In this document: positions 12,607 through 46,287 of the stretch, in pieces
How positions within the stretch are numbered: position 1 is the stretch's first letter
Layout of the letters: every line of letters begins with the position of its first letter
Assembly: GCA_026993075.1 (NCBI GenBank)
Contig: JALWUQ010000048.1
Span: forward strand, 1-57,957
DNA: 57,957 bases
Reading direction: 5' to 3'
DNA from: Campylobacteraceae bacterium
GTDB lineage: Bacteria; Campylobacterota; Campylobacteria; Campylobacterales; JALSKU01
The notes under the pieces: model-generated
What the model was told of the DNA's origin: nothing
The model's input: the letters and a program-made list of their open reading frames with translations, nothing else
The model's database searches: none
Program-made: the position numbers and the translations under genes

Positions 12607-12614
12607 TAAGGTAT

Positions 12615-27555: not shown

Positions 27556-28376
27556 AGTAGTTTTGCCCCCTCTAATGATGAATTTTTTAATTTACTGATT
27601 ATGATATTCAAATCCTCACAACTTTGCAAAAGTGCATAATTTTTTATATTTTCTTTAATCACATCCAACAGATACGGATTTGTCCTCACAACACCTCCTC
27701 CTAAAATCAATACTTTCGGATTAAACAGTGTGATAATATTTCCGGCTGCTACAAGTAAGGCTTCGATGAAATTTTTATATATTTTTTTAGCATTTTTATC
27801 TTCTGATGCAGATAATTCTTCCAAATCAAACTTTGGAAGATCATAATAATTTTCCCACTTTTCAAGACCACTACCACTTGCAAACAGTTCAATACAGTTA
27901 TTTTTACCGCATCCGCATAGAAAAGGAGCTTTTTTAAAAGGAATATGCCCTATCTCACAAGCTATATTTTTTTCACCTCTGACAATCCTTCCATTATCGG
28001 ATACGGCTGAGCCCAAACCTGTTCCTACAAAAAGCATAGCTATATTTGATTCATCCGTATAGTTTCGCTCAGCTATCAATGCACATTTTAAATCATTTTC
28101 TATTTTTAAAGCAATTTTATATTTTTTAAAAATGTATGATTTTATATCTTTTTCTTTAATTTTTATATTCGGAGAAGACAGTATCACGCCATCATCTACT
28201 TGACCGGCAAAAGATATACCTATAAAATTGATATCATCATGCTTTAATATTTTTTTTTCAATATATTCTATCAAGTCAACTTCAATGCTTAGAACCTCTT
28301 CTTTTAAGATTATATCATTTAGAAAAAGTTCACATCTAAGTTTCGTACCACCAATATCAATATACATTTTACTCAC
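27552..28376 (-). CDS. ROK family glucokinase
   Basis: DIGGTKLR, GTGLGSAV and the zinc motif CGCGKNNCIE are present. 274 aa. Confidence 0.8.
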   Translation of the reverse strand: MSKMYIDIGGTKLRCELFLNDIILKEEVLSIEVDLIEYIEKKILKHDDINFIGISFAGQVDDGVILSSPNIKIKEKDIKSYIFKKYKIALKIENDLKCALIAERNYTDESNIAMLFVGTGLGSAVSDNGRIVRGEKNIACEIGHIPFKKAPFLCGCGKNNCIELFASGSGLEKWENYYDLPKFDLEELSASEDKNAKKIYKNFIEALLVAAGNIITLFNPKVLILGGGVVRTNPYLLDVIKENIKNYALLQSCEDLNIIISKLKNSSLEGAKLL

Positions 28377-29758
28377 AATACTTCCTTATAAAGTTTTATG
28401 TATTTTTTCGCACTTTTTGCAAAAGAGAAGTTGCATTTCATATCAAATTTAACAATTTTTTCATAATTTTTTTTATTTTCAAATATACTTAAAGCCTTTT
28501 TTATAGCGTTTAATAATTCATCTTTTTGGAATTTATCAAACTTAATACCCATCGCACACTTTCTTTCGTCTTGAAAAACAGTATCTTTTAGCCCACCAAT
28601 GCCATGCACTATAGAAATGACACCATATCTTGCTGCTATCATTTGATTTAGTCCGCAAGGCTCAAAAAGTGAAGGCATGACTAAAAAATTTGCCGAGGCA
28701 TACATCTTGTGAGACATACCCTCATCATAACCTTTTATAAAGTGGATATTTTCATATTTTTTTGATAAAAGCATAAGATTTACTTCATATTTTTTTTCAC
28801 CTTCACCCAAAATAACAAATTCAAGTTTCATTTTGGAAATATCTTTTAAAAGATCAATTATCAAAGAGATACCTTTTTGCTCAACCAATCTGCCTATAAA
28901 TATAAAAAGAGGTCTTTTGCTATTTTTTATACTAAGATTTTCATAAAAAAGATTTCTATTTTTTTCTTTTTTATTTAAAGTTTTTACATCATAATTCTCT
29001 TTTATAGATTTATCATTTTTAGGATTAAAATATTCTGTATCGATACCGTTTAATATTCCCTCAAGCTTATATTTATATTTACTTAAAAAACCATCAAGTC
29101 CACAGCCATACTCCTTTGTCTGTATCTCTTTTGCATAAGTAGGACTGACAGTTGTTATCCTATCACTATAAGCTATCCCAGCTTTTAAAAGATTGACTTT
29201 GCCGTAAAACTCAAATGATTCTTGATTAAAATATTTTTTAGGTATTTCCAAAATACTTAAAATATCTTTTTCAAAAACTCCTTGATATGCGAGATTATGG
29301 ATAGTAAATACAGACTTTACCGCTGACTTTTTTTCTTTTAAGATAAAAGCCGCCAAAGCCGTATGCCAATCATTTAAATGAACAATATCTGCTTTTAAAA
29401 GCTCTGTCACTTTTGAAATGGCATAAGAAAAAATCCCAAATCTAAGAGAGTCATTTTTATATCCGTAAAGAGTGTCAACTTCGCATAAAATATCATTATA
29501 AACAAACAAAGTGTCAATTTTTTTATCAGTATGCCTGAAAAGCTCAATTTCATAAAAATTATCCCCAAAAGTTAAGATAAATTTTTTACCAAAAGGCATA
29601 ATGTTAAATTTATCTTTATCAATAAACTTATACATTGGAGTTATATTAATAATTTCACATATTTTATTAAGCTCAAGCGGTAAAGAGTGAGCCACATCAG
29701 CCAATCCTCCACTTTTTGAGTATGGAAAGACTTCACTTGAGGCGAACAAAACTCTCAT
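28373..29758 (-). CDS. Glycogen synthase (GT5), paralog 2
   Basis: EVFPYSKSGGLADV (KSGGL variant), HNLAYQG, GRLVEQKG and PSLFEPCGLNQ are present. Confidence 0.88.
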   Translation of the reverse strand: MRVLFASSEVFPYSKSGGLADVAHSLPLELNKICEIINITPMYKFIDKDKFNIMPFGKKFILTFGDNFYEIELFRHTDKKIDTLFVYNDILCEVDTLYGYKNDSLRFGIFSYAISKVTELLKADIVHLNDWHTALAAFILKEKKSAVKSVFTIHNLAYQGVFEKDILSILEIPKKYFNQESFEFYGKVNLLKAGIAYSDRITTVSPTYAKEIQTKEYGCGLDGFLSKYKYKLEGILNGIDTEYFNPKNDKSIKENYDVKTLNKKEKNRNLFYENLSIKNSKRPLFIFIGRLVEQKGISLIIDLLKDISKMKLEFVILGEGEKKYEVNLMLLSKKYENIHFIKGYDEGMSHKMYASANFLVMPSLFEPCGLNQMIAARYGVISIVHGIGGLKDTVFQDERKCAMGIKFDKFQKDELLNAIKKALSIFENKKNYEKIVKFDMKCNFSFAKSAKKYIKLYKEVL

Positions 29759-30777
29759 ATAATTGTACTTTTAAGGAGCTCTGCCGCATTTTCAGGAGAT
29801 AGTGGATTTATATGTATCTTGCTTTGAAGCTCAAATCCTCCTACCTTGTAAATTCTTGGAATTATCCTTATGTAAAAACGGTAAAATTCATCAATTTCAT
29901 CAAAAAATTCTTCTGTTTCATAACTTTTTTGCATCGGAGGATTTTGAATATACAAATTATAATCAAAATTTCCTATTTGAACTTTCAATTTAGACAAACT
30001 ATCTTTTAACAACTCTGATATTTCGTCCAAAAGCTTTTTATCTAAAGTATCTATTGAGCTTATTTTTACTTTTGGCATTATCATAACTTCAAAAGAAAAA
30101 GCACTGGCATAAGGACAAAAAGATATAAAGTTTGCACTCTCTTTTATAACTCTTTTATTTTGCTCCAATTCATAATCTACGATATCTTTAAAAATACTTC
30201 TACCATGAGTTTTGTAATGGTTAAAATAATATTTTAGATTTGATAATTCATTTTTTGGGATTAGAGGCATCGCTATTAGTTGGGTATGAACATGAGGAAG
30301 AGTTGCACCTGAGTTTTGACCTTGATTTTTAAAAATACAAAAGTAAGTCAATCTTATATCTTTTTTCAAATCTTCAACTCTAAGCTTGATAACGCTCAGC
30401 CAATCCTTCATCTGTAAAGTCGATAAATCTTCAAAACAAATTATATGTTTTGGTGTATCTATGATAATTTCATGAGCACCAAAGCCATCTTTTTTTTCAT
30501 AAATACCATCGATATTGGATATATCAGTTGCTTCTATTTGAACTGCTTTGTAGAGATTTGGCACAACCCTAACATCCCAAGAAGAGCTGTTTTTAGCTTT
30601 TAAAGAAAATATTTCAGGCGGAGTCATATCTTCATGTCCACTACAAAACGGACAAAGAGTTTTTTCAACACTTTTTTTATCAATCTCTTGAAAAAGGTTG
30701 GGTCTTGTTAGCCTGTTTGGTGCTATTATCACTTGTTCATTACTTAATAAGTCGTATCTAAACTCAGACATTTTCAA
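29755..30777 (-). CDS. GalT-family hexose-1-phosphate nucleotidyltransferase / NDP-hexose phosphorylase
   Basis: Zinc motif CPFCSGHE and the active-site HxHxQ (HVHTQ). 340 aa. No galK/galE lies nearby. Confidence 0.75.
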   Translation of the reverse strand: MKMSEFRYDLLSNEQVIIAPNRLTRPNLFQEIDKKSVEKTLCPFCSGHEDMTPPEIFSLKAKNSSSWDVRVVPNLYKAVQIEATDISNIDGIYEKKDGFGAHEIIIDTPKHIICFEDLSTLQMKDWLSVIKLRVEDLKKDIRLTYFCIFKNQGQNSGATLPHVHTQLIAMPLIPKNELSNLKYYFNHYKTHGRSIFKDIVDYELEQNKRVIKESANFISFCPYASAFSFEVMIMPKVKISSIDTLDKKLLDEISELLKDSLSKLKVQIGNFDYNLYIQNPPMQKSYETEEFFDEIDEFYRFYIRIIPRIYKVGGFELQSKIHINPLSPENAAELLKSTII

Positions 30778-32800
30778 CCTTTAATACACCATTGATTTCA
30801 AGATTTCTACAAAAAGGAAAAACAAGTGCAAAGCTCACTCCCTGAGCCATAAGTTCAAACCCTTTTTCACTTTGAGAGACAGTATTTAGTGGAGTCATCA
30901 ATAGTTTAAAAGGTAAATTTAAAGAAAATGATAACTTTTTTTTCGTATATTTATCGATTAAAAAAAATTCTTTTATATTTTCAAATTTTATATCATCTAA
31001 TAAAGAAGTATCATCACAAAATACATTTTTCAAATCGGCAAAATGAAGATTAAATTCCAAAGCATAAAGATATTCTTTTTCACTTTTTGAATTTATTTTT
31101 ATATCAAACGCTATTCCCTCTTTTAAAAATTGATATTTTTTTGTGATAATCGTATCATACTTTTCATCAAAATATATCCCACCTTCTCTTTTAAATACAA
31201 TCTTATTTTTATCTTTTATCAGCTCAAACGGTTGATTTGCAAAATCTCCATATTCCCAAAAAGAGCATCTTTTAAAATTTTCCATAGTAAAAGTTTTATT
31301 ACTTATATGATCAATAAAAGAATTTTTAATATACCAGTCAAAACTAAGAGCATCTTTTATCTCTTTATTTACCTCTATTTCTTTGTTATGGATAGTTTCA
31401 ATTTCATCTTTTGACTTCTTTATTTTTGAAGTCTTTTGTTTTTCTATCATTTTTTGATGATAAGACTCTTCTCTTCTTGTTAAAGTATTTTGATAGTTAA
31501 ACTTTTTATCTCTTTGCAAAAATTCTACCATTTGTCCGCCATAATGGCTATCAAACCTTATTATAAAGTTATTTTTTATGATTTTTACTTCATCATATCC
31601 ATTCATATCTATATCATTTATCTCTACAGCTTCTTTATTTTTATATCTTATGTTTTCACATTCACATAAATAAGAGTAAGCATTATCTCTTAAATTTGGC
31701 AGATACAAACCCCCAAAAACTCCATGCCAAAAAACATCATTTGTCTGAAGTTTATAAAGTGAGTCTAAAAACTTTTTATTTTTTACCTTGTTGCTTGATA
31801 CTTCCAGCATCCTTTTATGAAGCCTGTTTGATTCATCATACTTAACAAAAAAATTTTTCCAAGTACCACCTTTTACAAACTTATCCGTATCATCACCGTA
31901 AACTTCTTTGGTTTTAGTTTGTATCTTTTCAAGAGTTATCGCATCTTTTGCTCTTAAACTCCATTCACCCATCTCATAATATGAAACATTTTGCAAGTAT
32001 GCGATACCTTTTGCTTTTTGCTTTTGATAATACTCATTAAAATGCATACATTCTATGGATTTATCTTTTAAAACAGTCGTAAAAAACTCTTCAAGCCATC
32101 CTTTTTCATATACCCATTCATAAGTTCCAGGCCACAAGCCAAACTTTTCTGCATCATCAAAGATGATTGCCGCACTTTGTTTTGTTTTATATAACTCTTT
32201 TATATCCTGTATAACTTCTTTTACATTTTTAAAAGGGATTGCATATCTTAATTTTTTACTTATAGGAAAAAGAGCTAGTTTCTTAGCATCGTTTTCACTA
32301 AAATAATATCCATCCAAATCTTCACTGTCAAACCCACTAGCACGAAAATGATAATCATCAACCATCGCATACGAAACTTTGCATGCAACAAAATCATTTA
32401 TAAGTGAATCCTCCCAAACTCGCTCAGTAAGCCAAGCTCCTTTTGGTATTTTTGAAAATTCTTTTTTTATATATTTATTTAATTTTTCTATTTGAGAAAT
32501 TCTATCAATACTTGGTATCGAGCTTAAAACAGGCTCATAAAATCCTGCTGTAAAAAACTCAATAGTACCATAATCACTTAATTTTTTTATATTCAAAAAT
32601 ACTTCAATATAATTTTTCTTTATATAGTCCAAAAGCCAGCCGCTACAATGAAGTGCTATTTTAAATTCTGGAAATTTTTTTAAAACTTCAAAAAAAGGCT
32701 TATAACATTTCTCAACGGCTTCATCAACAGCCTCCTTAAAATTGTCCACAGGCTGGTGCATGTGAATTCCAAAAAGAAATTTTATCTTCTTATTTTGCAT
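30764..32800 (-). CDS. GH57 4-alpha-glucanotransferase-like enzyme
   Basis: The N-terminus FLFGIHMHQPVDNF resembles the Thermococcus litoralis GH57 glucanotransferase. The nucleophile block is GAWLTERVW and the acid/base block is FDDAEKFG. 678 aa. Confidence 0.8.
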   Translation of the reverse strand: MQNKKIKFLFGIHMHQPVDNFKEAVDEAVEKCYKPFFEVLKKFPEFKIALHCSGWLLDYIKKNYIEVFLNIKKLSDYGTIEFFTAGFYEPVLSSIPSIDRISQIEKLNKYIKKEFSKIPKGAWLTERVWEDSLINDFVACKVSYAMVDDYHFRASGFDSEDLDGYYFSENDAKKLALFPISKKLRYAIPFKNVKEVIQDIKELYKTKQSAAIIFDDAEKFGLWPGTYEWVYEKGWLEEFFTTVLKDKSIECMHFNEYYQKQKAKGIAYLQNVSYYEMGEWSLRAKDAITLEKIQTKTKEVYGDDTDKFVKGGTWKNFFVKYDESNRLHKRMLEVSSNKVKNKKFLDSLYKLQTNDVFWHGVFGGLYLPNLRDNAYSYLCECENIRYKNKEAVEINDIDMNGYDEVKIIKNNFIIRFDSHYGGQMVEFLQRDKKFNYQNTLTRREESYHQKMIEKQKTSKIKKSKDEIETIHNKEIEVNKEIKDALSFDWYIKNSFIDHISNKTFTMENFKRCSFWEYGDFANQPFELIKDKNKIVFKREGGIYFDEKYDTIITKKYQFLKEGIAFDIKINSKSEKEYLYALEFNLHFADLKNVFCDDTSLLDDIKFENIKEFFLIDKYTKKKLSFSLNLPFKLLMTPLNTVSQSEKGFELMAQGVSFALVFPFCRNLEINGVLKVENV

Positions 32801-32812
32801 TTATAATCCTTA

Positions 32813-34828
32813 TTATAAAAACCAATTTTTCTCAAATTCTTCATTACAAACTTCTATATCGCCAAAGATAGGCACAAATTCGCTATTTGATTTTTTATCA
32901 GTGATTTCTATTTGAAGATTGATTTTTTTCATATTTTTACATAATTTTTTATCTATTGACAATTCCAATATATCTTTGATTGCCAGCTTCACTCCATTTT
33001 GTTCATATTTTTCCATGATCGGAAGTGTTACTATCTTCTTCAACTCTTTTAAATGAATTTTTATCTCTTTATACTCTTTAAAAAGTTTTTTATTATCCAC
33101 ATCAAGTCGTATATATATAAAATTTTCATCTTCACCATAATAAAGCTGTTGCACAATACCTCTGCTTGTATCCATAGTCGAATATGCCTTGCTCTCATCA
33201 ACCAAACCAGATCCCAGCCATTCATAAAATGAATCTTTTTTGCCGTTTACATTAGCTGTTATATTAAACTGCGGTTTTGTTTGTGAGAGTTTAGCTTCTC
33301 TCTCTTTGGATATAGGTAACATTAGATTTGATGGTATTTTCATATTTGCAAGCTTGTATATATCTTGCAAATGAGATCTAAAAAGCAAATCAAACTCTTC
33401 TAAAAAATCACTAAAATGATCATCTCCATACCACCAAAACCAATCTGAACATTCACTTGCTAAAAAATGTTTTTCTACTAATTTGTTAGTTTTTTCATCA
33501 AATACGCACTCTTTTGTATCTCTTTTGGTTTGATATATAAGCTCCCAAGCTCTATTTTTTTCATTATGCCCCACCCAAGTATCAAAAGTACCATATATCC
33601 AACTTCCCGGATGTAAAGTCGTTAATTTATTTTTTTTAAAATTATTTATTTCATCAAAATTTCTTGTTTGTATGTTTTTCTCATTTGAAAGTTTTTCATA
33701 CAATTTCATAAAAAAATCCATCGCATTGTTTTGATAAAATTCCCATGCGTTTTCGCCATCAACTATCACAAAAACAGTTACATCTTCTTTCTCGGAGTTT
33801 ATATTATTTACTTTTTGAACAAAATCATTTACCGCATCATTCGCTTTTTTATATCTATATGAAAAACCTATTAAATCACTTAGAAAATGGTCTCTAAAAG
33901 CTATAAATACATCACTGTATTCAAATAATTCATATATCAAATCTTTTTGATTATTTTTTAAAGTTTTAAAAAGTATCGCTTCATCGGTTGCTACCCATTT
34001 GATACCTTTTCTTTTATACAATTCTAAACTCTTTTCATCCACCGCCCCCTCAGCCGGCCAAAAACCATTTGGATTTGCACCAAATACTTCTTTGTATAAT
34101 TTTATAGAAAAATCAACCTGTTTTAAAGCATCATCTTCCAAAGAAAAATACTCTTTTGGTAAAGTAGTATCAGGATTTGAAATCTTCGCATTGTTCATAT
34201 CCAAAAGAAGTGGAAGTATCGGATGGTTTAAAGGTGTAGTTGAAAGTGAAATCTGTCCTTTTTTTAAAAGCTTTGCGTAAAAAGGAAGAATTTTTGGGAT
34301 AAATTTTAAGAGTGTATCTAAAAGATTTGCTTTATCAATGGCATTGTATCCCTTTTTTTTATCTATTAAATTCTTAATTATACTATCATTTTGTCTTAAA
34401 AAATTCCCACACCATGAAAGCATAAATAAAACTTCAAGCTCTATTAGTTCATTATCATCATAACTATCTTTGTAAAACAATTCTGCAAATCTTGGAAAAC
34501 TTGATACCATAGTGTCAAATTGGGAGGATTTGCATATCTTTATGAGTGATTTTTTATCAACCTTTGTTAACTCTTTTGGATCTTTTATCCAAGAGAGTAA
34601 AAACTTATCTTTTTTATATCCGTTTTTTTCATACACTTGGATTTGTTGTATCAAAGGAGGTGTAAGATTGAAAGTTGCTTTTAGATTTGGAAAAAGCGAT
34701 AAAAGCCAAGGCATTTCATAATAATCCTTAATAGAGTGCAAAAACACCCATGGCATCTGCAAAAACCCTTTCTTATCACGATAATCAGGCTGATGCATAT
34801 GCCATAAAAAAGATAAATTAACTGACAT
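32813..34828 (-). CDS. GH57 family glycoside hydrolase (alpha-amylase/amylopullulanase-like)
   Basis: LSFLWHMHQPDY, GFWPAEGAV and VIVDGENAWEF are present. 671 aa. Confidence 0.8.
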   Translation of the reverse strand: MSVNLSFLWHMHQPDYRDKKGFLQMPWVFLHSIKDYYEMPWLLSLFPNLKATFNLTPPLIQQIQVYEKNGYKKDKFLLSWIKDPKELTKVDKKSLIKICKSSQFDTMVSSFPRFAELFYKDSYDDNELIELEVLFMLSWCGNFLRQNDSIIKNLIDKKKGYNAIDKANLLDTLLKFIPKILPFYAKLLKKGQISLSTTPLNHPILPLLLDMNNAKISNPDTTLPKEYFSLEDDALKQVDFSIKLYKEVFGANPNGFWPAEGAVDEKSLELYKRKGIKWVATDEAILFKTLKNNQKDLIYELFEYSDVFIAFRDHFLSDLIGFSYRYKKANDAVNDFVQKVNNINSEKEDVTVFVIVDGENAWEFYQNNAMDFFMKLYEKLSNEKNIQTRNFDEINNFKKNKLTTLHPGSWIYGTFDTWVGHNEKNRAWELIYQTKRDTKECVFDEKTNKLVEKHFLASECSDWFWWYGDDHFSDFLEEFDLLFRSHLQDIYKLANMKIPSNLMLPISKEREAKLSQTKPQFNITANVNGKKDSFYEWLGSGLVDESKAYSTMDTSRGIVQQLYYGEDENFIYIRLDVDNKKLFKEYKEIKIHLKELKKIVTLPIMEKYEQNGVKLAIKDILELSIDKKLCKNMKKINLQIEITDKKSNSEFVPIFGDIEVCNEEFEKNWFL

Positions 34829-37350
34829 TATTTATCCATCCATTTTTCTATTTTATCTCTGTAAAGATTATTTAAATCTTCTCCTCTTTCTTTAGTTTTT
34901 GCTTGAACATAAAGATTTAAAAAATCATCGAATTGATCTGGTATCATAAGTATCCAATCTTCTTCATTTTCCCATATTTTAACTCCATCAACTGTTGAGG
35001 ATTTTTTGCTTTTTGCTTTTTGTAAAAATTTTCTCATAATTTTACCTTTTAACGCTTGAGAACACTCTATTTTGCATTGGTGATAATAAAAATCTTCAAA
35101 ATTTCCAGCTATATTTGAAAGTTTTTCTTTTTGACGAGATAACATTTCCATGATTTTCAAACTTGCATAAATGGCATCTCTGTGTAGTGAAAATTCACTA
35201 AAAGCAAAATTACCATCGATTGTCGCTATAAGGTCGTACTGCTTCATTTTATCTGCTTTGAAATTTGCATATTTTCCTCTTTTTATGATAAGATTTTCAA
35301 ACTTCTCATCCATAAAATCAGGTGCCCAGCTGGGCAAAAATACAACTTTCTTCTTATCTTTCGCCTCAAGATTAAAAAGATACATAACACAAAGCAATGC
35401 TTTTATCTTGTTTAAAACCTCTCCTTTATCTGTGATGATAGAAAGTCTTTGACCATTTGGATACATAAGTATTCCCAAACTCAAACCAAGACTTTTTACG
35501 ATGGCGGAAACTTCTTCTTTTGATTTTTCTTCAATGTGTAAAATATTTGCCATCTTGTGATAATCAGTATAAGCATTTAGTAAAATATTTTCCACCTGAA
35601 TATCGGCCATAATTTCAGGAAAGATATCTTTAGTTCCACCAAACATCAAATCAACTACTACTTTAAAATTATTTTTTTTGATAATACTGTGATCAATAGC
35701 GTTTTCAATGGCACTTTTATACTTATGGCATTCATCTAAATGATGAACATAGTTTTCTCTTATTCTTCCTATCCTGTTATATTCAACTCTTCTAAATTTT
35801 TGTTGGAAAAATGCTTTTTCAACTGATTTTGCCATATCAGTATCTATCCTAAGTCCCTCTTCAGTAAAAAAGGTAAATTCTACACTAGTAGGGTCATTCA
35901 TATTTTGTCTAAAATAAATACCTGCAATTAAGCTGTCATCATTTCCTAAATTATATCTTAAAACCGCCGGAGGCATAGCCTTTAAATCTATCACATTAAT
36001 ACCCCCAGAAAGCAATCCTCCTAAAAATGCTCTCTTTAACATCCTTGCACTTTTACTGTGATCTCTTGCTACTATAACCGTACTTCCAATAGGCAACTGT
36101 GAGGCAAATGCTTCTGAAATCTGGCAAGACATTTCACAAGAAAGCTCAACATTACTCTTTCCTATAACTCTTCCATATTCAATAAGAGAATTTTTATATT
36201 TACTTCCCCATACGATATTATTATTAACGATAGAGGTTGCCTCTATACTTTTATGAGGCCAGACTGTCACATCTTGTTCAAATTTTACAAGTTTGCCGAC
36301 ATCACACCCCTCAGCCAAAACAACTCCAGCCTTTGCCGTAACAAAATCATCTATTTTGTTATCATTACAAATGACGCAATTATCAAGTATACATTTTTTA
36401 CCAACATCTATATCATTCCAAAAAACAGAATTTCTAACTCTACAATCTTCACCTATGACTACATTATCACCTATAACAACATTATGAAGCCTTGTTCTTT
36501 TACCTATCTTGACATTTGTTCCTATAACAACACTATCGACTATCTCAACACTTGAATCAATACTGCTTTCTCCGGTTAAATGCAAAATCCCATCAGGATA
36601 TTTTATCTTCTTTCCTGGTATTTCAAAATCTAATTTATTATTAAAAATATCATCATACACTTCTTTGTAACTCTCGGGGTTACCCACATCCCTCCAGTAA
36701 CCTTTCGCGTTATAAGACATCAAATCTACTCCTTTTTCCATAAGAAGTGGAAATAAATCTTTAGCAAAGTCGAAGCTGTCCTCTTTTGGAATATACTCCA
36801 ATATCTCAGGCTCAATCACATAAATACCCGTATTTATAGTATCACTGAAAACTTCACCCCAGCTTGGTTTTTCTAAAAATTTTTCTATTTTTCCCTCATC
36901 ATTTGTAATAACCACGCCAAACTGAAGAGGGTTTTCAACAGAAGTTAGAGTTATGGAGAGTTTTGCATTTACTTTGTAATGATGTTTAATAATTTTTTCA
37001 AAATCAAAATCACTTACCAAATCTCCACTGACTATGATAAAAGTAGTATCTAAAAATTCTCTTGCACATCCAACAGCCCCGGCAGTCCCGTAGTCTTCCG
37101 CAGGCAGTACATACTCTATATTTGCACCCCACTTACTTCCATCTCCAAAGTAATTTTTTATAATTTCAGGTTTAAAATACAACAAAAAAATTATATCTTT
37201 TATACCGATATCAACTAACTTTTTTAAAGTATGCTCCATCATAGGAAAATTAAATATCGGCAACATTGGCTTTGGCATCGAATTGGTCAGCGGTTGGATT
37301 CTCGTACCAAATCCGCCTGCCATCATCACGGCTTTTATCTTCTTGGGCAT
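34828..37350 (-). CDS. Sugar-1-phosphate nucleotidyltransferase + left-handed beta-helix fused to a degenerate PGM/PMM-like domain
   Basis: 840 aa. The N-terminus has MMAGGFGTRIQPLT...MPKPMLP and hexapeptide repeats (VVIGDNVVIGEDCRV...). The C-terminal half aligns to the PGM/PMM fold but lacks the signature loops (see findings). Confidence 0.8.
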   Translation of the reverse strand: MPKKIKAVMMAGGFGTRIQPLTNSMPKPMLPIFNFPMMEHTLKKLVDIGIKDIIFLLYFKPEIIKNYFGDGSKWGANIEYVLPAEDYGTAGAVGCAREFLDTTFIIVSGDLVSDFDFEKIIKHHYKVNAKLSITLTSVENPLQFGVVITNDEGKIEKFLEKPSWGEVFSDTINTGIYVIEPEILEYIPKEDSFDFAKDLFPLLMEKGVDLMSYNAKGYWRDVGNPESYKEVYDDIFNNKLDFEIPGKKIKYPDGILHLTGESSIDSSVEIVDSVVIGTNVKIGKRTRLHNVVIGDNVVIGEDCRVRNSVFWNDIDVGKKCILDNCVICNDNKIDDFVTAKAGVVLAEGCDVGKLVKFEQDVTVWPHKSIEATSIVNNNIVWGSKYKNSLIEYGRVIGKSNVELSCEMSCQISEAFASQLPIGSTVIVARDHSKSARMLKRAFLGGLLSGGINVIDLKAMPPAVLRYNLGNDDSLIAGIYFRQNMNDPTSVEFTFFTEEGLRIDTDMAKSVEKAFFQQKFRRVEYNRIGRIRENYVHHLDECHKYKSAIENAIDHSIIKKNNFKVVVDLMFGGTKDIFPEIMADIQVENILLNAYTDYHKMANILHIEEKSKEEVSAIVKSLGLSLGILMYPNGQRLSIITDKGEVLNKIKALLCVMYLFNLEAKDKKKVVFLPSWAPDFMDEKFENLIIKRGKYANFKADKMKQYDLIATIDGNFAFSEFSLHRDAIYASLKIMEMLSRQKEKLSNIAGNFEDFYYHQCKIECSQALKGKIMRKFLQKAKSKKSSTVDGVKIWENEEDWILMIPDQFDDFLNLYVQAKTKERGEDLNNLYRDKIEKWMDK

Positions 37351-37373
37351 TTTTTATCCTTTTTAAGATTTAC

Positions 37374-37655
37374 TTAGACTTCTATGGCAGAATTAGTACT
37401 CCCAAAACTATTTTGAACTTCCAGAGCATCTGCTTCATTTTCCCAAATGCTACCATCTATCAAATATTTAAATTCATAAATTTGTCCTATCGGAAGTATT
37501 TTTGTTATATAAAAATCTCCATTTTTCTTTTGTTTCATTTTTTCTTTACTCCAGTCACTCCAAGAACCTGTTATCTCAACTGTTTTCTCCTCATTTGTTG
37601 GAACATAAGTAAATGTAACCCAAGCTTTATCCGCATTTTTCTTAACTTTCAACAT
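37374..37655 (-). CDS. Stand-alone CBM48 (AMPK-beta-type glycogen-binding) protein
   Basis: 93 aa. VEITGSWSDWSK...GDFYITKILPIGQIYEFKYLIDGSIWEN...NSFGSTNSAIEV matches the CBM48/GBD consensus. There is no signal peptide. Confidence 0.75.
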   Translation of the reverse strand: MLKVKKNADKAWVTFTYVPTNEEKTVEITGSWSDWSKEKMKQKKNGDFYITKILPIGQIYEFKYLIDGSIWENEADALEVQNSFGSTNSAIEV

Positions 37656-37667
37656 TTCATCCTCCTT

Positions 37668-39305
37668 TTATTTTTTATAAACTTTTTCATAATATTCTCT
37701 AACCATCCTGGAAGAGTCAAAATACCGTATATCATTCATACCATTTTGTATGATTTGCACCCATTTTTTTTCATCATCATAGTAAGTAGGCAGTATCTCA
37801 TCTTCTAAGATACTCATCATACTTTCATAATCCTTTTTATCTTGCTCTTCTATACTAAGAGTTGTATCTGCATGATGGATTGTAAATGAATTAATATCAT
37901 CTTTATAAAACTCATCATGCCATCCATCGTCAATAGAAAAATGGATACAGGCATTTGAAACTGCACTCATTCCGCTAGTACCGCTTGCTTCTCTTGAATA
38001 CCTTGGAGTATTTAGCCAAATATCACCTCCTTGTTTTAAAAGTTTTGAAAGCCTCAATTCATACCCTATTAAGACAGCTACATTCTTATACTCTTTCGCA
38101 ATTTTAATAAGCTCATTAAACATATTGACAGCACGATAATCAAGTGGATATGGTTTACCTGCCCAAATGATTTGCACAGGTCTTTTAGTATCATTTATAA
38201 GTTTTTTAAATCTTTGCATATCATAAGTTAAAAGCCATGGTCTTTTATATTCGGCAAATCTTCTTGCCCATACGATAGTTAAAATATCAGGATCAAATAT
38301 CTTTCCTGTTTGGTCTGCGACTTCTTCAAAAAGCAACCTTTTTAAATGTTTTTTTCTCCCAATTATCTGGTACTCTTCATGCTCTTGAAACCAGCTAACT
38401 AACTGTTTATCAGCCCAATACCTCATATTTTGTGCATTTGTTATACCTATTATCTCACATTTTCCTTTTACCCCACTCCACATTTCATTAGCAACTTTGG
38501 CATGTATTTTAGAAACAGCATTGGCAATTTTTGAAACTTTTAAAGCTCCTATTGTTAAAGAAAAATTATCATCTTCATAATTTAATATTTTTTTTACTTC
38601 TTCTGCTCCTAAGCTGCCAAAAAAGCCCATCCTTTCTAAAAGGCTTATATCATGTTCTTCATTTCCTGCTATTTCTGGAGTATGAGTAGTAAAAACGACT
38701 CTTTTTTTAACTTCTTCCAAACTTTCTAAATTTTCCAAAAGCTTAAATGCCAAAGGCAAGGCATGCCCTTCGTTTAAATGATAAATATCTATCTCTTCAT
38801 TAAGGGCTTCAAGAACCTTTACTCCACCTATACCTAAAACTATCTCTTGAGCGATTCTTGTTTCTTCGTTGGCATCATACAGTTTGTGAGTAATCGTCCT
38901 TGCCAAATAATCATTTTCAAAAACATCGGTTGAGAGCAGTATAAGAGGTGCGGTATCAAAACAAGATGAAGGTAAAAGATAAGCTTTTACTGTTATTGGC
39001 TTGGAATTTATCATAACTGTTACTTTGATATTTAAATCTCTTATAAAATAGTAAAATTTTCTTAAAAAATCTATCTTTAAACTTCTGTCTTCATGTCTGT
39101 GTTGATCATAATATCCATAACTCCACAAAAGCCCTACACCGATAGTATTTTGTCTTAAATCATTCGCACTTCTAAGATGAGAACCTGCTAAAAAACCAAG
39201 TCCTCCCGAGTAATTTTTAAAAGCTTGATCTATTGCAAACTCCATCGAAAAGTAAGCGACTTTTGTGCTGTATCTTTCATTTATATCATAATCAATCAGT
39301 TTCAT
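37668..39305 (-). CDS. GT35 alpha-glucan phosphorylase-family paralog lacking the PLP lysine (candidate pseudoenzyme)
   Basis: 545 aa. YSGGLGFLAG, HLNEGH, FTTHTP and ARRFAEYKR are conserved, but the PLP motif reads EASGTSGMS instead of GTSGMK. Confidence 0.8.
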   Translation of the reverse strand: MKLIDYDINERYSTKVAYFSMEFAIDQAFKNYSGGLGFLAGSHLRSANDLRQNTIGVGLLWSYGYYDQHRHEDRSLKIDFLRKFYYFIRDLNIKVTVMINSKPITVKAYLLPSSCFDTAPLILLSTDVFENDYLARTITHKLYDANEETRIAQEIVLGIGGVKVLEALNEEIDIYHLNEGHALPLAFKLLENLESLEEVKKRVVFTTHTPEIAGNEEHDISLLERMGFFGSLGAEEVKKILNYEDDNFSLTIGALKVSKIANAVSKIHAKVANEMWSGVKGKCEIIGITNAQNMRYWADKQLVSWFQEHEEYQIIGRKKHLKRLLFEEVADQTGKIFDPDILTIVWARRFAEYKRPWLLTYDMQRFKKLINDTKRPVQIIWAGKPYPLDYRAVNMFNELIKIAKEYKNVAVLIGYELRLSKLLKQGGDIWLNTPRYSREASGTSGMSAVSNACIHFSIDDGWHDEFYKDDINSFTIHHADTTLSIEEQDKKDYESMMSILEDEILPTYYDDEKKWVQIIQNGMNDIRYFDSSRMVREYYEKVYKK

Positions 39306-40565
39306 CTATTTATCGCCTCCAAATTTTTTAACTAATATTTTTTTACCATTTTCAACGCCTGGCTGGTCATAAGTATTTATCCCAAGAAGCAAGCCTGTAT
39401 ATGAAGTAAGCAATTCAAAATACATTATCATTTCTCCTATATTTTCTTCACTTATTATATCTAAAGTTATACTGTCAACAGGAATATTTTCAGCAATTAA
39501 GCTCTCTTTTGTCGCATCGCACTCTGCATTTATAAGTTCATTAAAAGAGTGAGAGTTTATATAATCAACTTTTTCAATATTTTTTAAAGATATAGAAGGA
39601 ACAATCAAATCATTTTCAAAATCTTCAACTTTTATAAATGTGACTGTCTTGTCTCTTACTCCTTGCATAATAAGTTGTAAAAAAGAGTGTTGATCTACTG
39701 AGCCTATGTGTCCAATAGGAGTCAAACCGGTATGTTTGCCTTCTTTGTCAATTTTTCCAAGAGACTCAGCCCATAACTGCACGAACCATTTGGTAAAATC
39801 TTCCAAACAATCAGCATAAGAAAAAAGTACATTCACAGGGTATTTTTTTTGTGCATAAAAAAGAGCTTTTAAGCCTATACTCTCAATTCTGCTGTCAAAA
39901 AATTTATCCATTATCGATTTTGCACCTTTTAGTATCGATTCAACATCAAATCCTGCCAATTTCAAAGGAACTACTCCAACCGCACTTAAAACAGAAAACC
40001 GCCCTCCTACATTTTGAGGTATAACAAAAACTTTGATGCCGTGAAAATCAGCAAATTTACAAAGAGGCGAACCATCATCGCTAACAACAAGCACTCTTTT
40101 ATTCTCAGCTGTATTTAAATCTATATCAAAATGTGCAATAACTGTCTTAAAAATAGAAGTTGTCTCTATAGTTCCTCCGGATTTGGATATTACTACAAAT
40201 ATAGAATTTTCTTTTTTTATCTGTGAAAATATTTTTGATATACTCAAAGGATCAGGATTTTCCAAAAAAAGTAAATTTTTAATATTTTTATATTTATGCT
40301 TTAATACAGAATTTACAGCTTTTGTACCCAAAGATGAACCGCCAATCCCTATAACTACAATATTCTCAGCACTTTGATAAATCCCATCTTCATTTATAAT
40401 ATAATTTTCTACCTCTTTCAAAAGATGAATAGAATCATCAGGAAGATTATAATATCCACTTACTCCTTTTTCTCTCTCTTGTATCATCGAGCCAAATGCA
40501 TTTAGCAAAAGTATACTGTTTTCTTCATCAATTTCTACATCCAAATATCTCTCATACTGTATCAT
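39306..40565 (-). CDS. pgi: Glucose-6-phosphate isomerase
   Basis: 419 aa. IGIGGSSLG and GGRFSVLSAVG are present. Confidence 0.9.
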   Translation of the reverse strand: MIQYERYLDVEIDEENSILLLNAFGSMIQEREKGVSGYYNLPDDSIHLLKEVENYIINEDGIYQSAENIVVIGIGGSSLGTKAVNSVLKHKYKNIKNLLFLENPDPLSISKIFSQIKKENSIFVVISKSGGTIETTSIFKTVIAHFDIDLNTAENKRVLVVSDDGSPLCKFADFHGIKVFVIPQNVGGRFSVLSAVGVVPLKLAGFDVESILKGAKSIMDKFFDSRIESIGLKALFYAQKKYPVNVLFSYADCLEDFTKWFVQLWAESLGKIDKEGKHTGLTPIGHIGSVDQHSFLQLIMQGVRDKTVTFIKVEDFENDLIVPSISLKNIEKVDYINSHSFNELINAECDATKESLIAENIPVDSITLDIISEENIGEMIMYFELLTSYTGLLLGINTYDQPGVENGKKILVKKFGGDK

Positions 40566-40566
40566 T

Positions 40567-42210
40567 TTATCCCTCCTTAAAAACTTTTTTTATCATTTGT
40601 TTAGCTTCGTTTTGTATAGATTTTAAATGCTCCAACGATACAAAACTCTCTGCATAAATCTTATAAATATCTTCTGTCCCAGATGGTCTCAAAGCAACCC
40701 AACTGTTTTTTGTAACTATTTTAACTCCACCTATTTTTGCACCATTTCCTGAAGCTTTTGAAAAAATATACTCTATCTTCTCACCGCCTAAACTCTTTTC
40801 TTTTATATCTTTTGGCTCTATATTTTTCAATATATCTTTTTGCTCTTTGGTTGCTGTAACATCTATTCTTGCATAGTATGCTTTTGAGAAACTTTTTTCA
40901 AAATCGCTGTAAATATCACTTAAATCTCTTTTTTGACTTGCAATGATTTCAGCTGAGAGGAGATTGAGTATAATACCGTCTTTATCTGTAGTCCAAACAC
41001 TCTCATCAAACCTCAAAAAAGAAGCCCCCGCGCTCTCTTCACCGCCAAATCCAAGTTCGCCGTCAAACAAACCTTTTGAAAACCACTTAAAACCAACAGG
41101 CACTTCATATATCTTTCTGTTTAGAGATGTTGCAACTTTGTCTATCATAGAACTTGAAACTAAAGTTTTTCCTATTTTTAATCCTTTGCTCCAATGTCTA
41201 TGTTTAAACAGGTACCAAATAGCAACACTAAGATAATGATTTGGATTTAAAAGTCCGCCTTTTGGTGTGACTATACCATGCCTGTCAGAGTCAACATCAT
41301 TGGCAAATGCTATATCATACTTATCTTTTAGTCCAATCAACCCTGCCATCGCGTAAACAGATGAGCAATCCATCCTGATTTTACCGTCATGGTCTAAATG
41401 CATAAAAGAAAAAGTAGGATCTACAAATGGATCTATAATATCCATATCAAGAGAGTATATCTCATTTATCTTTTTATAAACAGCTATACTTGCCCCACCC
41501 AAAGGGTTGACTCCTATCTTTAATTTTGCTTTTTTTAGCAAATCCATATCAATAATATCTTTTAAAGATTCTACATAAGGTGTGATAAAATCATACTCTT
41601 TTATATATCCGCTTCGCATAGCATCTTCAAGTGAAATACTCTTAACACTTAAAAGATTATTTTTCAAGATTTCATTTGCTTTTTTTTCTATGATATTTGT
41701 TATATCACTCTCAGCCGGTCCTCCATTTGGTGGATTATATTTATAACCTCCATCACTTGGCGGGTTGTGTGAAGGTGTTATAACCACTCCATCACCTTTT
41801 TTATTATTTGTTTTATTATATTCCAATATGGCAAATGAAACTAAAGGGGTTGGCGTATACTCATCATCTTTAGCTATAAATACATTTACCTCATTTGCAG
41901 CAAAAACTTCCAAAGAAGTGAGTTGTGCGGGAATAGAAAGGGCATGTGTATCTTTACCTAAAAATAAAACTCCATCAATACCATTTTCTTTTCTATAATC
42001 ACAAATAGCTTGAGAGATAGCTTTAACATGGTACTCATTAAAGCTTTTTTTGTAGGCATTTCCTCTGTGACCAGAGGTTCCAAATGAGACTGTTTGCTCT
42101 TTTTTACTCATGTCCGGAGTTAACATATAGTATGCACTTATAAGTGCTGGTATATTTTCAAGTTTATCTTTTGAGACAAGTTTTCCCGCATTTTTATCTA
42201 TCATTTTCAA
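40567..42210 (-). CDS. pgm: Phosphoglucomutase (alpha-D-glucose phosphate-specific)
   Basis: 547 aa with all four loops intact: TPSHNP, DVDSDR, GGEESAG and RPSGTED. Confidence 0.93.
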   Translation of the reverse strand: MKMIDKNAGKLVSKDKLENIPALISAYYMLTPDMSKKEQTVSFGTSGHRGNAYKKSFNEYHVKAISQAICDYRKENGIDGVLFLGKDTHALSIPAQLTSLEVFAANEVNVFIAKDDEYTPTPLVSFAILEYNKTNNKKGDGVVITPSHNPPSDGGYKYNPPNGGPAESDITNIIEKKANEILKNNLLSVKSISLEDAMRSGYIKEYDFITPYVESLKDIIDMDLLKKAKLKIGVNPLGGASIAVYKKINEIYSLDMDIIDPFVDPTFSFMHLDHDGKIRMDCSSVYAMAGLIGLKDKYDIAFANDVDSDRHGIVTPKGGLLNPNHYLSVAIWYLFKHRHWSKGLKIGKTLVSSSMIDKVATSLNRKIYEVPVGFKWFSKGLFDGELGFGGEESAGASFLRFDESVWTTDKDGIILNLLSAEIIASQKRDLSDIYSDFEKSFSKAYYARIDVTATKEQKDILKNIEPKDIKEKSLGGEKIEYIFSKASGNGAKIGGVKIVTKNSWVALRPSGTEDIYKIYAESFVSLEHLKSIQNEAKQMIKKVFKEG

Positions 42211-42213
42211 TCC

Positions 42214-42450
42214 TTAAAAAATTTCGTTCGACACCTCATCTATATGACCTTTTTTACCACCTTTTATATGAGCATAAGCAACCACTAAAGCTACTACAGC
42301 TGAAAAGACAATAAAATATAAAAAATTAAATATCATATCAGCATAATAATCAATCATTCCAGAAAGTGCTGTAAAAAGTACAAAATATGTTAAAAATAAT
42401 TTTATATATCTTTTATATGGAAACTTTTTATTATGTTTTTTATGACTCAC
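42214..42450 (-). CDS. Small two-TM membrane protein
   Basis: 78 aa. A basic N-terminus is followed by two hydrophobic helices. The start overlaps the gpmA stop by 11 nt, and the stop lies 3 nt before pgm. Confidence 0.55.
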   Translation of the reverse strand: MSHKKHNKKFPYKRYIKLFLTYFVLFTALSGMIDYYADMIFNFLYFIVFSAVVALVVAYAHIKGGKKGHIDEVSNEIF

Positions 42451-43150
42451 TTTTATCCTTTAAAACAGTCTTATTAGTCATTTGCATCACTTTGTCAAAC
42501 TCATACACTATAAGTTCTCCAGTAGGAATCTCAAACTTAACTATCTCTTCTTCAGATATTTTCTCAATCTCCATGACCAATGCTCTTAAAGAGTTTCCAT
42601 GAGCTGATATGAGTACTGTTTTATCAGTTGTAAGAACAGGTACTATTTTTTCATAAAAATAATTAACTGCTCTTTTTTTTGTATCTTTTAAAGACTCACT
42701 CTTTGGAAGTAAAAAAGGATTTACACTATTGTATTTTTTATCATTTTCAGGCAATCTTTTATCTCCTGTTTCAAGAGGAGGAGGTGGAGTATCATACCCT
42801 CTTCTGATACTTAAAAACATACTCTCACCTATCTCAAGCTTTATCTTGTCTTTATTCATTCCCTGCCATGCACCATAATGCCTTTCATTCAACTTCCAAC
42901 TTCTATTTATATCTATATGCTCCCAATTTAATTCATTTAAAACGATCTGTGCTGTATGTATAGCCCTTTTTAGCCAAGAAGTAAAACAAATTTCAGGCAA
43001 CAAACCACTTCTTTTTAAAATATCTCCAGCTTGTTTTGCTTCATCTCTTCCTTGTTTGCTAAGTTCTACATCGCTCCAACCGGTAAAGATATTTTGTTGA
43101 TTATAAACACTTTGACCATGTCTTAAAAGTATAAGTTTTGACATTTTCAA
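42440..43150 (-). CDS. gpmA: 2,3-bisphosphoglycerate-dependent phosphoglycerate mutase
   Basis: LLRHGQSVYNQQNIFTGW and SAHGNSLR are present. Confidence 0.93.
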   Translation of the reverse strand: MKMSKLILLRHGQSVYNQQNIFTGWSDVELSKQGRDEAKQAGDILKRSGLLPEICFTSWLKRAIHTAQIVLNELNWEHIDINRSWKLNERHYGAWQGMNKDKIKLEIGESMFLSIRRGYDTPPPPLETGDKRLPENDKKYNSVNPFLLPKSESLKDTKKRAVNYFYEKIVPVLTTDKTVLISAHGNSLRALVMEIEKISEEEIVKFEIPTGELIVYEFDKVMQMTNKTVLKDKSES

Positions 43151-44157
43151 TCCATCTTAGATGCTACAAAATCAGCAAGTTCTAATAATCTTTGAGAATA
43201 TCCGTATTCATTATCATACCAGGCAAGCACTTTTACCATTTTATCTCCGACTACACTTGTTGAAAGTCCATCTATGATACTTGAGTGAAGATTACCTAAG
43301 ATATCGCTTGAGACTACTTCTTCCATTGTTATTTCAAGTATTCCTTTTAACTCATTTTGAGATGCTTTTTTATAAGCTTCATTTAACTCCTGGGCTGTTG
43401 TAGGTTTACTTAAAACAGCAACTATCTCTGTAATAGCACCATCAGGTACCGGCACCCTAAGAGCCATAGCTTCCATTTTACCTTTTAATACAGGGATAAC
43501 TTCGGTAGTGGCTATAGCCGCACCTGTTGTAGTTGGTATTATATTGACCGCGGCAGCTCTTCCTCTTCTTCTTTTTTTTGATCTTTTATCAACTGTTGTT
43601 TGGGTTGAAGTATAGGCATGAGTAGTTGTTATCATAGCATTTTCAACTCCAAAATTATCCTCTAAAACTTTCATCGCAGGAGCTAAAGAGTTGGTTGTGC
43701 AAGAGGCATTTGAGAGAATATGATGATTTTTAGGGTCATATCCGTTTTGATTAACTCCTAACACTATAGTTTTATCCAAGTTTTTTCCCGGAGCTGAAAT
43801 GATAACCTTTTTAGCACCTGCTTCTAAATGCTGCTTGGCAAGATTGCCATCGGTATAGTGTCCGGTGCATTCTAAAACTATATCAATTCCAAGCTCTTTC
43901 CATGGAAGTTCCAAAGGATTGTGAGAACTGACCACAGTTATCTCTTTACCATCAATTATCAGTTTTTCATTTCCTTCTGTTTGTATGTCAAAATCTGCTT
44001 TTCCGTGAACTGAGTCATACTTTAAAAGATAAGCTGCATCTTCCACACTTGAAGTATTTACAGCTACTATTTCACAATGTTTAGGCAAATTGTTCATATA
44101 GTGTCTTAAAACCTGATTGCCAATCCTACCAAGTCCATTTATCGCTACTCTTTTCAT
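43147..44157 (-). CDS. gap: Glyceraldehyde-3-phosphate dehydrogenase
   Basis: INGLGRIG and the catalytic SNASCTTNSLAP are present. 336 aa. Confidence 0.95.
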   Translation of the reverse strand: MKRVAINGLGRIGNQVLRHYMNNLPKHCEIVAVNTSSVEDAAYLLKYDSVHGKADFDIQTEGNEKLIIDGKEITVVSSHNPLELPWKELGIDIVLECTGHYTDGNLAKQHLEAGAKKVIISAPGKNLDKTIVLGVNQNGYDPKNHHILSNASCTTNSLAPAMKVLEDNFGVENAMITTTHAYTSTQTTVDKRSKKRRRGRAAAVNIIPTTTGAAIATTEVIPVLKGKMEAMALRVPVPDGAITEIVAVLSKPTTAQELNEAYKKASQNELKGILEITMEEVVSSDILGNLHSSIIDGLSTSVVGDKMVKVLAWYDNEYGYSQRLLELADFVASKMD

Positions 44158-46286: not shown

Positions 46287-46287
46287 C

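Follow-up and report, generated by a model that had tools for sequence, protein, structure and literature searches.

Do three adjacent genes of a bacterial glycogen operon, among them two whose products have lost residues diagnostic of catalysis, form a single non-catalytic device, or are they separate parts of a larger operon? The question is raised by a 57,957-nucleotide stretch of DNA from a Campylobacteraceae bacterium (assembly GCA_026993075.1, contig JALWUQ010000048.1), referred to here in its whole length as the window. Three minus-strand open reading frames (ORFs) at positions 34828-39305, denoted genes A, B and C, encode a short homologue of the α-glucan phosphorylases of family GT35, a stand-alone carbohydrate-binding module of family CBM48, and a sugar-1-phosphate nucleotidyltransferase (NTP-transferase) fused to a domain with the fold of phosphoglucomutase/phosphomannomutase (PGM/PMM). 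In the preliminary description of this DNA, the trio was taken for a non-catalytic module that tethers the supply of nucleoside diphosphate (NDP)-glucose to the glycogen granule or gates it allosterically. Our analysis, in which functional statements on the three genes are based on sequence, predicted structure and gene order, leads us to favour, at about even confidence, another reading, namely, that A, B and C are separate parts of a conserved glycogen-plus-glycolysis supraoperon of hydrothermal Campylobacterota and not one non-catalytic cassette. Within this supraoperon, C most likely makes NDP-glucose in place of GlgC, B is probably its glycogen-binding partner, and A appears, from its residues and distribution, more likely to be a working enzyme than a scaffold.

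37668-39305, minus strand: gene A, 545-aa short GT35 protein, a TIGR02094-type α-glucan phosphorylase homologue of the clade without the cofactor lysine (Lys-less clade)
37374-37655, minus strand: gene B, 93-aa stand-alone CBM48 of the AMPK-β glycogen-binding-domain type (PF16561)
34828-37350, minus strand: gene C, 840 aa

Gene order around gene C

The closest public relative of the window is a metagenome-assembled genome (MAG) of a hydrothermal Campylobacteraceae (L001; 96-98% protein identity). In the window and its closest relatives, A, B and C adjoin and are tightly packed, and a catalytic GlgP and a catalytic pgm are encoded in the same operon, as a single module would lead one to expect. 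A wider comparison gives a different picture. We fetched 83 loci around homologues of C, called their ORFs and classified these against the operon proteins of the window; upstream counts refer to the 62 Campylobacterota loci in which C is preceded by at least 400 bp. The loci are for the most part MAG contigs, in which the absence of a gene within 10 kb differs from its absence in the genome. Strict A-B-C contiguity was found in 4 of the 62 loci, which counts against the trio as conserved neighbours. More favourable to a common module is an order in which pfkA, alone or together with pgk, separates A from B-C (7/62); it recurs in Hydrogenimonas, Nitratiruptor, Nitratifractor, Sulfurovum and Sulfurimonadaceae. 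A lies directly upstream of C without B in 4 loci, Lys-type GlgP is found ahead of B-C in 2, and pgm stands directly upstream of C in 5 loci and of B-C in one. The gene preceding B-C is variable and may be A, GlgP, pgm or pfkA; elsewhere, A is absent or is located at the far end of the cluster. Altogether, A is present somewhere in 30 of the 62 loci and Lys-type GlgP in 10, with both found in a single locus and, additionally, in the window.

The same cluster is common to Hippea and Hydrogenothermus. In Hippea maritima, A is convergent with its far end. In Hydrogenothermus marinus (Aquificota), GlgP and a 92-aa CBM48 protein are followed by C-GH57-GH57-GalT-GlgA-GlgB; here, as in Nautiliaceae, an ordinary GlgP replaces A ahead of B-C. 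The most conserved neighbour of C lies on its other side: a 671-aa GH57 protein is encoded directly after C in 52 of 70 Campylobacterota loci, most exceptions being truncated contigs, and the second GH57, GalT-like, glgA and glgB genes follow further downstream where the contig reaches.

In the other phyla where A is found, it occurs without B or C, and C is, in many phyla, accompanied by neither A nor B. These distributions, the substitution of A by an ordinary GlgP, and the active-site and cofactor-pocket residues of A, which are conserved as in active enzymes, all argue against one regulatory module that tethers the pyrophosphorylase to the glycogen granule or gates it allosterically, and we consider such a module improbable. 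Of that proposal, the coupling of B to C stands, and the trio as a cassette and A as its non-catalytic member do not.

In loci L006, L008, L011, L014, L018, L024, L036 and L062, the genes between A and B/C are pfkA (319 aa) and sometimes pgk (406 aa). The window has neither at this position; gene order in the supraoperon is variable, with glycolysis genes mixed with those for glycogen.

Gene A, a phosphorylase homologue without the PLP lysine

The product of A matches TIGR02094 with 427.7 bits (cut-off 191.7) and also PF00343. Its AlphaFold2 (AF2) model (mean pLDDT 82.7) has the GT-B phosphorylase fold, with the glycogen phosphorylase of Segatella copri as the top Foldseek match (TMq 0.85). 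The protein has no N-terminal DUF3417 domain and is shorter by an internal segment of ~45 residues. Its motif E439-A-S-G-T-S-G-M-S447 aligns without gaps with EASGTSGE-K609 of the Segatella copri enzyme, in which K609 carries the pyridoxal phosphate (PLP) cofactor (PMC12912991). A thus departs from the Schiff-base-lysine motif of GT35, E-A-S/C-G-T-S-G-x-K, by having Ser447 opposite K609 and opposite K613 of the canonical GlgP of the window, and the earlier identification of A as a GT35 paralogue without the PLP lysine is borne out. The serine codon, AGT, is two substitutions away from a lysine codon.

37965-37967, minus strand: AGT codon of Ser447 of A, which stands where the PLP Schiff-base lysine would be
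38034-38036, minus strand: codon of Lys424 of A, a clade-specific lysine

The loss is not peculiar to this genome. In Campylobacterota, every A-type ORF in 30 loci has serine or threonine at the lysine site, and every GlgP of 666-722 aa has lysine. Among 1.84 billion representative proteins, searched exhaustively with HMMER, 7568 relatives of A were found. In a neighbour-joining tree of full-length representatives, 21 clusters with S, T, A or G at this site (512-575 aa) form one deep clade, apart from 118 Lys-containing clusters. With the more distant half of the Lys-less clade as seed, a scan of genomes gave 599 matching stretches; the 80 best loci, which were examined, all carry a short A-type gene, and the lysine site, read in 79 of them, is always S or T. 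The A-type genes in these 80 loci share 45-57% identity with A and belong to Bacteroidota (Chryseobacterium, Pontibacter, Chitinophagaceae, Saprospiraceae), Melainabacteria/Vampirovibrio and Verrucomicrobiota, extending the range of a clade that also includes Campylobacterota and Hippea. Their loci in Bacteroidota, Melainabacteria and Verrucomicrobiota have no conserved context and usually no glycogen genes nearby, a glycogen synthase adjoining in one locus. B and C are absent beside the A-type genes of Bacteroidota and Melainabacteria, and a search for B-like domains in 80 loci, each centred on an A-type gene from another phylum, found none. Members of the clade are currently annotated everywhere as "alpha-glucan family phosphorylase". 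Since S, T, A or G fills the lysine site in all clade members, Ser447 is a property of the clade and not a lesion. The ratio of nonsynonymous to synonymous substitution (dN/dS) of A versus L001 is 0.126. Across the trio, dN/dS is 0.05-0.13, and the degenerate residues are family-wide and under purifying selection rather than specific to one strain.

Other parts of the active site are kept. Conserved at 90% or more in the Lys-less and Lys-containing clades alike are GGLG, H176/E179, T206-H208-T209, N290 and W297, together with R348-R349-Y353-K354-R355, G383-K384, Y415, E439 and T443. A has the phosphate-binding R-R-x-x-x-Y-K-R motif, the glucose-site histidine of T-H-T, the T-N motif and the PLP-stacking aromatics. 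We take the conserved residues to be the counterparts of H377, N484, W491, R569, K574, Y648, E672 and T676 of rabbit muscle phosphorylase. By alignment, the retained set appears to include both aromatic residues that would sandwich the PLP ring (W297 and Y415) and the holders of the PLP phosphate. Accordingly, the label non-catalytic, which A had been given, is not justified by its residues, nor by the distribution of a clade that stands alone in Bacteroidota and Melainabacteria.

Six positions alone separate the Lys-less clade from the rest, namely, Y66, F116, K318, P385, K424 and F474. K424 is lysine in 100% of the 21 Lys-less representative clusters and in at most 15% of the 118 Lys-containing ones, which mostly have valine. 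The PLP lysine is lost in perfect correlation with the gain of this lysine, 23 residues upstream. We considered K424 as a substitute Schiff-base lysine and set it aside as unlikely, since DSSP of the model assigns it to the final turn of the helix after Y415, five residues ahead of the following strand; it is thereby predicted to be at that end of the Rossmann crossover which is remote from the cofactor aldehyde.

Three things favour A as a working enzyme: how its residues are conserved, the distribution of its clade independently of B and C, and the positional exchange with GlgP. A would then be an α-glucan phosphorylase or transferase that keeps PLP, or a different cofactor, in place with no canonical Schiff base. 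A is often the sole phosphorylase homologue within the cluster, and it is unlikely to be functionless, because the residue set is kept and cross-phylum conservation exceeds that of catalytic GlgP, whose identity to relatives from other phyla is, among the matches listed, 40-47%. For the Lys-less short GT35 clade as a whole, we tentatively suggest, as a possibility somewhat short of an even chance, that its members are active phosphorylases or glucosyltransferases without lysine-anchored PLP. The cofactor may be held non-covalently between the retained W297 and Y415; alternatively, the emptied PLP pocket may take another phosphate-bearing ligand, for example, an NDP-sugar.

Some considerations pull the other way. 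We know of no characterised GT35 enzyme that does not use lysine-bound PLP, and an active Lys-less enzyme would be unprecedented. The window holds both A and a normal GlgP, which fits a non-catalytic paralogue, and the status of A as sole phosphorylase holds per cluster, not per genome, the scan for Lys-type GlgP having covered the matches listed. Non-catalytic paralogues are common in starch and glycogen metabolism, and A might be a true pseudoenzyme, independent of B and C, which binds glucan or glucose-1-phosphate as a regulator or serves as the heteromeric partner of a Lys-type phosphorylase. Ligand binding, not catalysis, would then explain the conservation of the pocket, and the absence of the lysine from every clade member would be accounted for. 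Less easily reconciled with a pseudoenzyme are the higher cross-phylum identity of A than of GlgP among the matches listed, the retention of W297, Y415 and the PLP-phosphate-binding residues, and the fact that A and Lys-type GlgP are mutually alternative in most clusters. We therefore regard this explanation as unlikely and keep to A as a probable enzyme.

Compared with GT35 enzymes of the TIGR02094 type, such as the Segatella copri glycogen phosphorylase (PDB 9l6i) and the maltodextrin phosphorylase of Thermococcales, the A clade shares the GT-B fold and the motifs that contact phosphate, glucose and cofactor, and differs in having Ser/Thr/Ala/Gly for the PLP lysine, the clade-specific Lys424 and no DUF3417. 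If these readings hold, the clade represents either a new phosphorylase chemistry or a widespread, unrecognised ligand-binding pseudoenzyme; were it active, GT35 would for the first time include a departure from the covalent-PLP rule.

A further observation concerns a Campylobacterales MAG (L002), in which a ROK glucokinase and an A-type protein form a single 852-aa ORF (10986-13541, plus strand) with no stop codon and no run of N. In two related MAGs (L043 and L044), the glk stop lies within 3 nt of the A start. This joining hints at a possible functional link of A to glucose phosphorylation.

Genes B and C, a glycogen-binding domain and a nucleotidyltransferase fused to a pseudo-mutase

Gene C encodes three successive parts, the last of which has the fold of a phosphohexomutase and none of its catalytic loops (pseudo-PGM).

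36646-37350, minus strand: C residues 1-235, sugar-1-phosphate nucleotidyltransferase catalytic domain (PF00483), motifs intact
36196-36645, minus strand: C residues 236-385, left-handed β-helix (LbH) and linker (PF25084, PF00132, DSSP of the AF2 model)
34828-36195, minus strand: C residues 386-840, pseudo-PGM, complete four-domain phosphohexomutase fold without catalytic loops
35890-35916, minus strand: former phosphoserine loop YFRQN483MNDP (canonical TASHNP), Ser replaced by Asn; aligned with 9du5/1wqa
35443-35469, minus strand: former Mg2+ loop LMYPNGQRL (canonical DGDxDR), DGDADR replaced by YPNGQR, three Asp lost
35200-35226, minus strand: former sugar-binding loop ATIDGNFAF (canonical GEExG), GEENG replaced by TIDGN
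34924-34950, minus strand: former phosphate-binding loop LMIPDQFDD (canonical RxSGTEP), RASGTEP replaced by IPDQFDD

The catalytic domain is intact. It matches PF00483 with 176.9 bits (cut-off 21.2), keeps the motifs GGFGTRIQPLT...PKP, SGD, EKP and WRDVG, and has residues G12-G13-x-G15-T16-R17, K27, D110, E160-K161 and D221 that are invariant in 25-28 homologues; its dN/dS is 0.012. The pseudo-PGM was recognised by Pfam in part, PGM_PMM_I and II scoring above the cut-off, III below it, and IV not being detected. All four mutase domains are nonetheless present, because the AF2 model of this region (pLDDT ~90) superposes on the PGM of Thermococcus kodakarensis (9du5) with TMt 0.87; overall, TMt is 0.84-0.87 to the archaeal PGM/PMM references 9du5 and 1wqa, over ~460 columns. 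Alignment of the loops with these two references confirms the earlier observation that all four, for phosphoserine, Mg2+, sugar and phosphate, have been replaced.

The degeneration is seen in 78 of 78 full-length C homologues inspected. RxSGTEP is found in none of the 78, the serine position of the phosphoserine loop is variable across the family (N, S, D, K and others), and the Mg2+ loop is YPNGQR in Campylobacterota and a partial D-x-G-x-E-K/R in most homologues from distant phyla. The fusion of nucleotidyltransferase and dead mutase spans at least eight phyla, with distant homologues (34-37% identity) in Endomicrobia/Elusimicrobiota, Chlorobiota, Ignavibacteria, Rokubacteria, Erysipelotrichia and a deltaproteobacterium. 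Identity to the distant-phylum proteins is 52-56% for the catalytic domain versus 26-30% for the pseudo-PGM. The mutase loops were lost before the fusion family diversified, and the dead domain is ancestral to the family as a whole, in Elusimicrobiota, Chlorobiota, Ignavibacteria and others, which detaches it from the glycogen module to which it had been tied. The dead domain predates the recruitment of C to glycogen operons and is therefore a general accessory domain of this enzyme family. The annotation "mannose-1-phosphate guanylyltransferase/phosphomannomutase", carried by C homologues in many phyla, would consequently be systematically wrong with regard to the mutase. The NCBI CDD model cd05805 ('MPG1_transferase') covers the PGM-like domain of such fusions; the architecture is thus already catalogued, under a description as bifunctional. 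Separately, a tblastn search with the pseudo-PGM, made within the window and with the low-complexity filter off, gave a weak match at 31127-31702 (minus strand) to the middle of the 678-aa GH57 4-α-glucanotransferase-like protein (25.6% identity over 195 aa, E = 3.8e-4), which is probably compositional, the region being rich in Lys, Glu and Asn.

With a dN/dS of 0.056, the pseudo-PGM is kept by purifying selection as an accessory, and we infer that it has a regulatory, assembly-surface or docking function, in the last case for the genuine PGM or the GH57 protein. One specific version is that it serves as a docking surface for a genuine phosphoglucomutase, channelling glucose-6-phosphate via glucose-1-phosphate to NDP-glucose, and is not an allosteric sensor. 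This is a reasonable rival because a genuine PGM recurrently adjoins C homologues: an intact four-domain PGM/PMM (473-476 aa) is encoded directly after the C homologue in Endomicrobia, Elusimicrobiota and a deltaproteobacterium, and the pgm genes upstream of C and of B-C in six Campylobacterota loci were noted above. Moreover, PGM-fold proteins are known to act by protein contacts, as in the GlmM-CdaA complexes (7olh, 9g69) found among the fold matches. Consecutive pathway enzymes are expected to be adjacent anyway, and the Campylobacterota pgm (TIGR01132 type, 547 aa) belongs to another subfamily than the archaeal-type dead domain; docking of this kind thus seems rather improbable, and we retain the broader accessory function. 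In three of the distant loci (L071, L072 and L074, from Endomicrobia and a deltaproteobacterium), the dead-PGM fusion and the intact 473-476-aa PGM/PMM have no glycogen genes near them, and in two of the three a DUF502 protein and histidyl-tRNA synthetase come next after the PGM/PMM.

Known proteins offer partial parallels. In GMPPA/GMPPB, GlgC/GlgD and the large and small subunits of plant AGPase, the same NTP-transferase + LbH core as in C is accompanied by a catalytically dead module; in C, this module is not a paralogous subunit but a fused phosphohexomutase pseudoenzyme derived from the previous step of the pathway. Vertebrate PGM5/aciculin and GlmM, which regulates CdaA, are phosphohexomutase folds that act via protein contacts and not by catalysis, and are among the fold matches of C (6y8z, 7olh). 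Unlike C, they are free-standing and belong to unrelated pathways, and GlmM keeps its catalytic loops.

What, then, does the intact domain of C make? We propose that it supplies NDP-glucose (ADP- or UDP-glucose) to the two GT5 glycogen synthases of the operon. C is the only candidate source of NDP-glucose in the operon, because a tblastn search of the window for a second NTP-transferase found none besides C, and C itself stays below the cut-offs of the GlgC models (TIGR02091, 135.9 versus 424.9; NF003670, 140.3 versus 470), in agreement with the original statement that the window has no GlgC. In fact, C is under the cut-off of every named equivalog. Its N-terminal part is as near to the CugP-type UDP-glucose pyrophosphorylase tlr0611 (8x7s, E = 1.1e-40) as to GDP-mannose enzymes such as human GMPPB (7d72, E = 1.3e-40). 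CugP, a non-GalU enzyme of cyanobacteria, is a GMPP-like NTP-transferase + LbH protein that uses glucose-1-phosphate. It has no phosphohexomutase-like C-terminal domain, and the substrate assigned to C comes from its genomic context.

Evidence of another kind bears against NDP-glucose as the product. The best NCBIfam match of C is man1P_GTase_Rv (NF052502), a mannose-1-phosphate guanylyltransferase, with 248.3 bits versus a cut-off of 440; its sugar and nucleotide specificity do not appear to be readable from sequence. C might then be a GDP-mannose pyrophosphorylase, with or without phosphomannomutase activity, that serves another glycan and is placed in this operon incidentally, as its source annotation would suggest. 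We consider this very unlikely in view of the distance to the cut-off, the loss of all mutase loops, the recurrent GH57 gene after C and the GH57-GalT-GlgA-GlgB block downstream, and the lack of another NDP-glucose source in the operon; besides, CugP is a precedent for a GMPP-like enzyme specific for UDP-glucose. In vent Campylobacterota and Aquificota, C appears to replace GlgC at the committed step of glycogen synthesis, which bears on how these chemolithoautotrophs control carbon storage.

Gene B is a CBM48 domain standing alone, as first described. It matches PF16561 (AMPK1_CBM) with E = 2.9e-11 and 43.9 bits (cut-off 26.8), and is named by no NCBIfam model. It aligns with the glycogen-binding domain (GBD) of AMPK β1 (1z0n, E = 8.5e-5) and also with the CBM48 of SEX4. 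Twenty-four homologues keep the motifs GSW..W, DG.W and NS at the positions that align with the sugar-contacting Trp, Trp and Asn, which in AMPK β1 are W100, W133 and N150. The dN/dS of B is 0.106. A word-indexed search for B homologues returned 16 relatives, and the wider set comes from ORF calling in the fetched loci. B lies directly upstream of C in 22 of the 62 Campylobacterota loci and, with one exception, was seen only in this position, the pairing spanning several genera and two phyla, Campylobacterota and Aquificota. B is tightly and specifically coupled to C, and a glycogen-targeting role of B toward the NDP-sugar enzyme is therefore reasonable. B-C is the well-supported link, the firmest functional one among the three genes; in it, B probably brings C to the glycogen particle or senses glycogen for C. 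On the other side of the balance, 40 of the 62 loci carry C without B, and adjacency is the basis of the B-C link. An apparent in-frame B-C fusion of 948 aa in locus L005 was rejected, as it consists of two ORFs joined across a run of N.

The GBD of AMPK β, SEX4, LSF1 and PTST belong to the same Pfam family as B, with the Trp/Trp/Asn set kept in B, which may likewise bring a partner to α-glucan. The eukaryotic proteins are fused to their partner or have one known from experiment, in contrast to B, a bacterial protein of 93 aa whose presumed partner is deduced from adjacency. If real, the B-C pair would be a simple bacterial CBM48 adaptor for a metabolic enzyme, parallel to AMPK-β and plant PTST. 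The preliminary description was aware of no bacterial case of its concept, but spatial control of the NDP-glucose step now has a precedent among bacteria. Full-text literature searches found no paper on Lys-less GT35, the NTP-transferase/dead-PGM fusion or stand-alone bacterial CBM48, but a small non-enzymatic adaptor, CipG, was described in cyanobacteria in 2026 as recruiting GlgC to carboxysomes and altering glycogen deposition (PMC13506006). CipG is built from unrelated parts, being a pentapeptide-repeat protein that targets the carboxysome surface and has no homology to B.

The operon and its other genes

Between 24166 and 51132, 18 carbohydrate genes, A, B and C among them, share one orientation, one fewer than the 19 initially given. 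The 5' part of this run, in transcription order, consists of ppsA, class-I aldolase, eno, the 719-aa GlgP, gap, gpmA, pgm and pgi; A-B-C follow, and after them two GH57 genes, the GalT-like gene, glgA, a ROK kinase, a second glgA and glgB. The spacing is 0 nt between pgi and A, 12 nt between A and B, and 23 nt between B and C, and C and the following GH57 gene overlap, stop with start.

44160-46319, minus strand: comparator GlgP, canonical, 719 aa, DUF3417 and phosphorylase domains, PLP lysine K613 in the motif GTSGM-K613
40567-42210, minus strand: comparator pgm, genuine phosphoglucomutase, TIGR01132 803.6 bits, four loops intact
32813-34828, minus strand: 671-aa GH57 protein, start overlapping the C stop (PF03065 found on the Hydrogenothermus orthologue)
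24166-32800, minus strand: conserved downstream block of GH57 4-α-glucanotransferase-like, GalT-like, GlgA, ROK kinase, GlgA and GlgB genes

The two comparators are motif-intact, as reported at the outset: in addition to the lysine of GlgP, the pgm product keeps TPSHNP, DVDSDR, GGEESAG and RPSGTE.

A promoter/terminator consensus scan of 34000-43500 gave no signal above shuffled expectation. Of the gaps between operon ORFs after ppsA, just one was seen to be sizeable, the 229 bp that separate gpmA from pgm (42211-42439). An internal promoter for the part of the operon that begins with pgm-pgi-A-B-C could lie in this gap, although the consensus scan stays at chance level there.

The GalT-like gene (340 aa, 29755-30777, minus strand) always belongs to the cluster, where it follows the two GH57 genes, and is kept in Campylobacterota, Hippea and Hydrogenothermus. 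Its product scores 95.2 on TIGR00209 (galT), just under the cut-off of 102.1. It could interconvert NDP-glucose and hexose-1-phosphate, which bears on the identity of the nucleotide sugar that C provides. At 26083-29758 (minus strand), the two GT5 glycogen synthases, of 461 and 490 aa, are encoded on either side of the ROK-family kinase. Both score above the cut-off of TIGR02095, the family of ADP-glucose-type synthases, and only some relatives have both.

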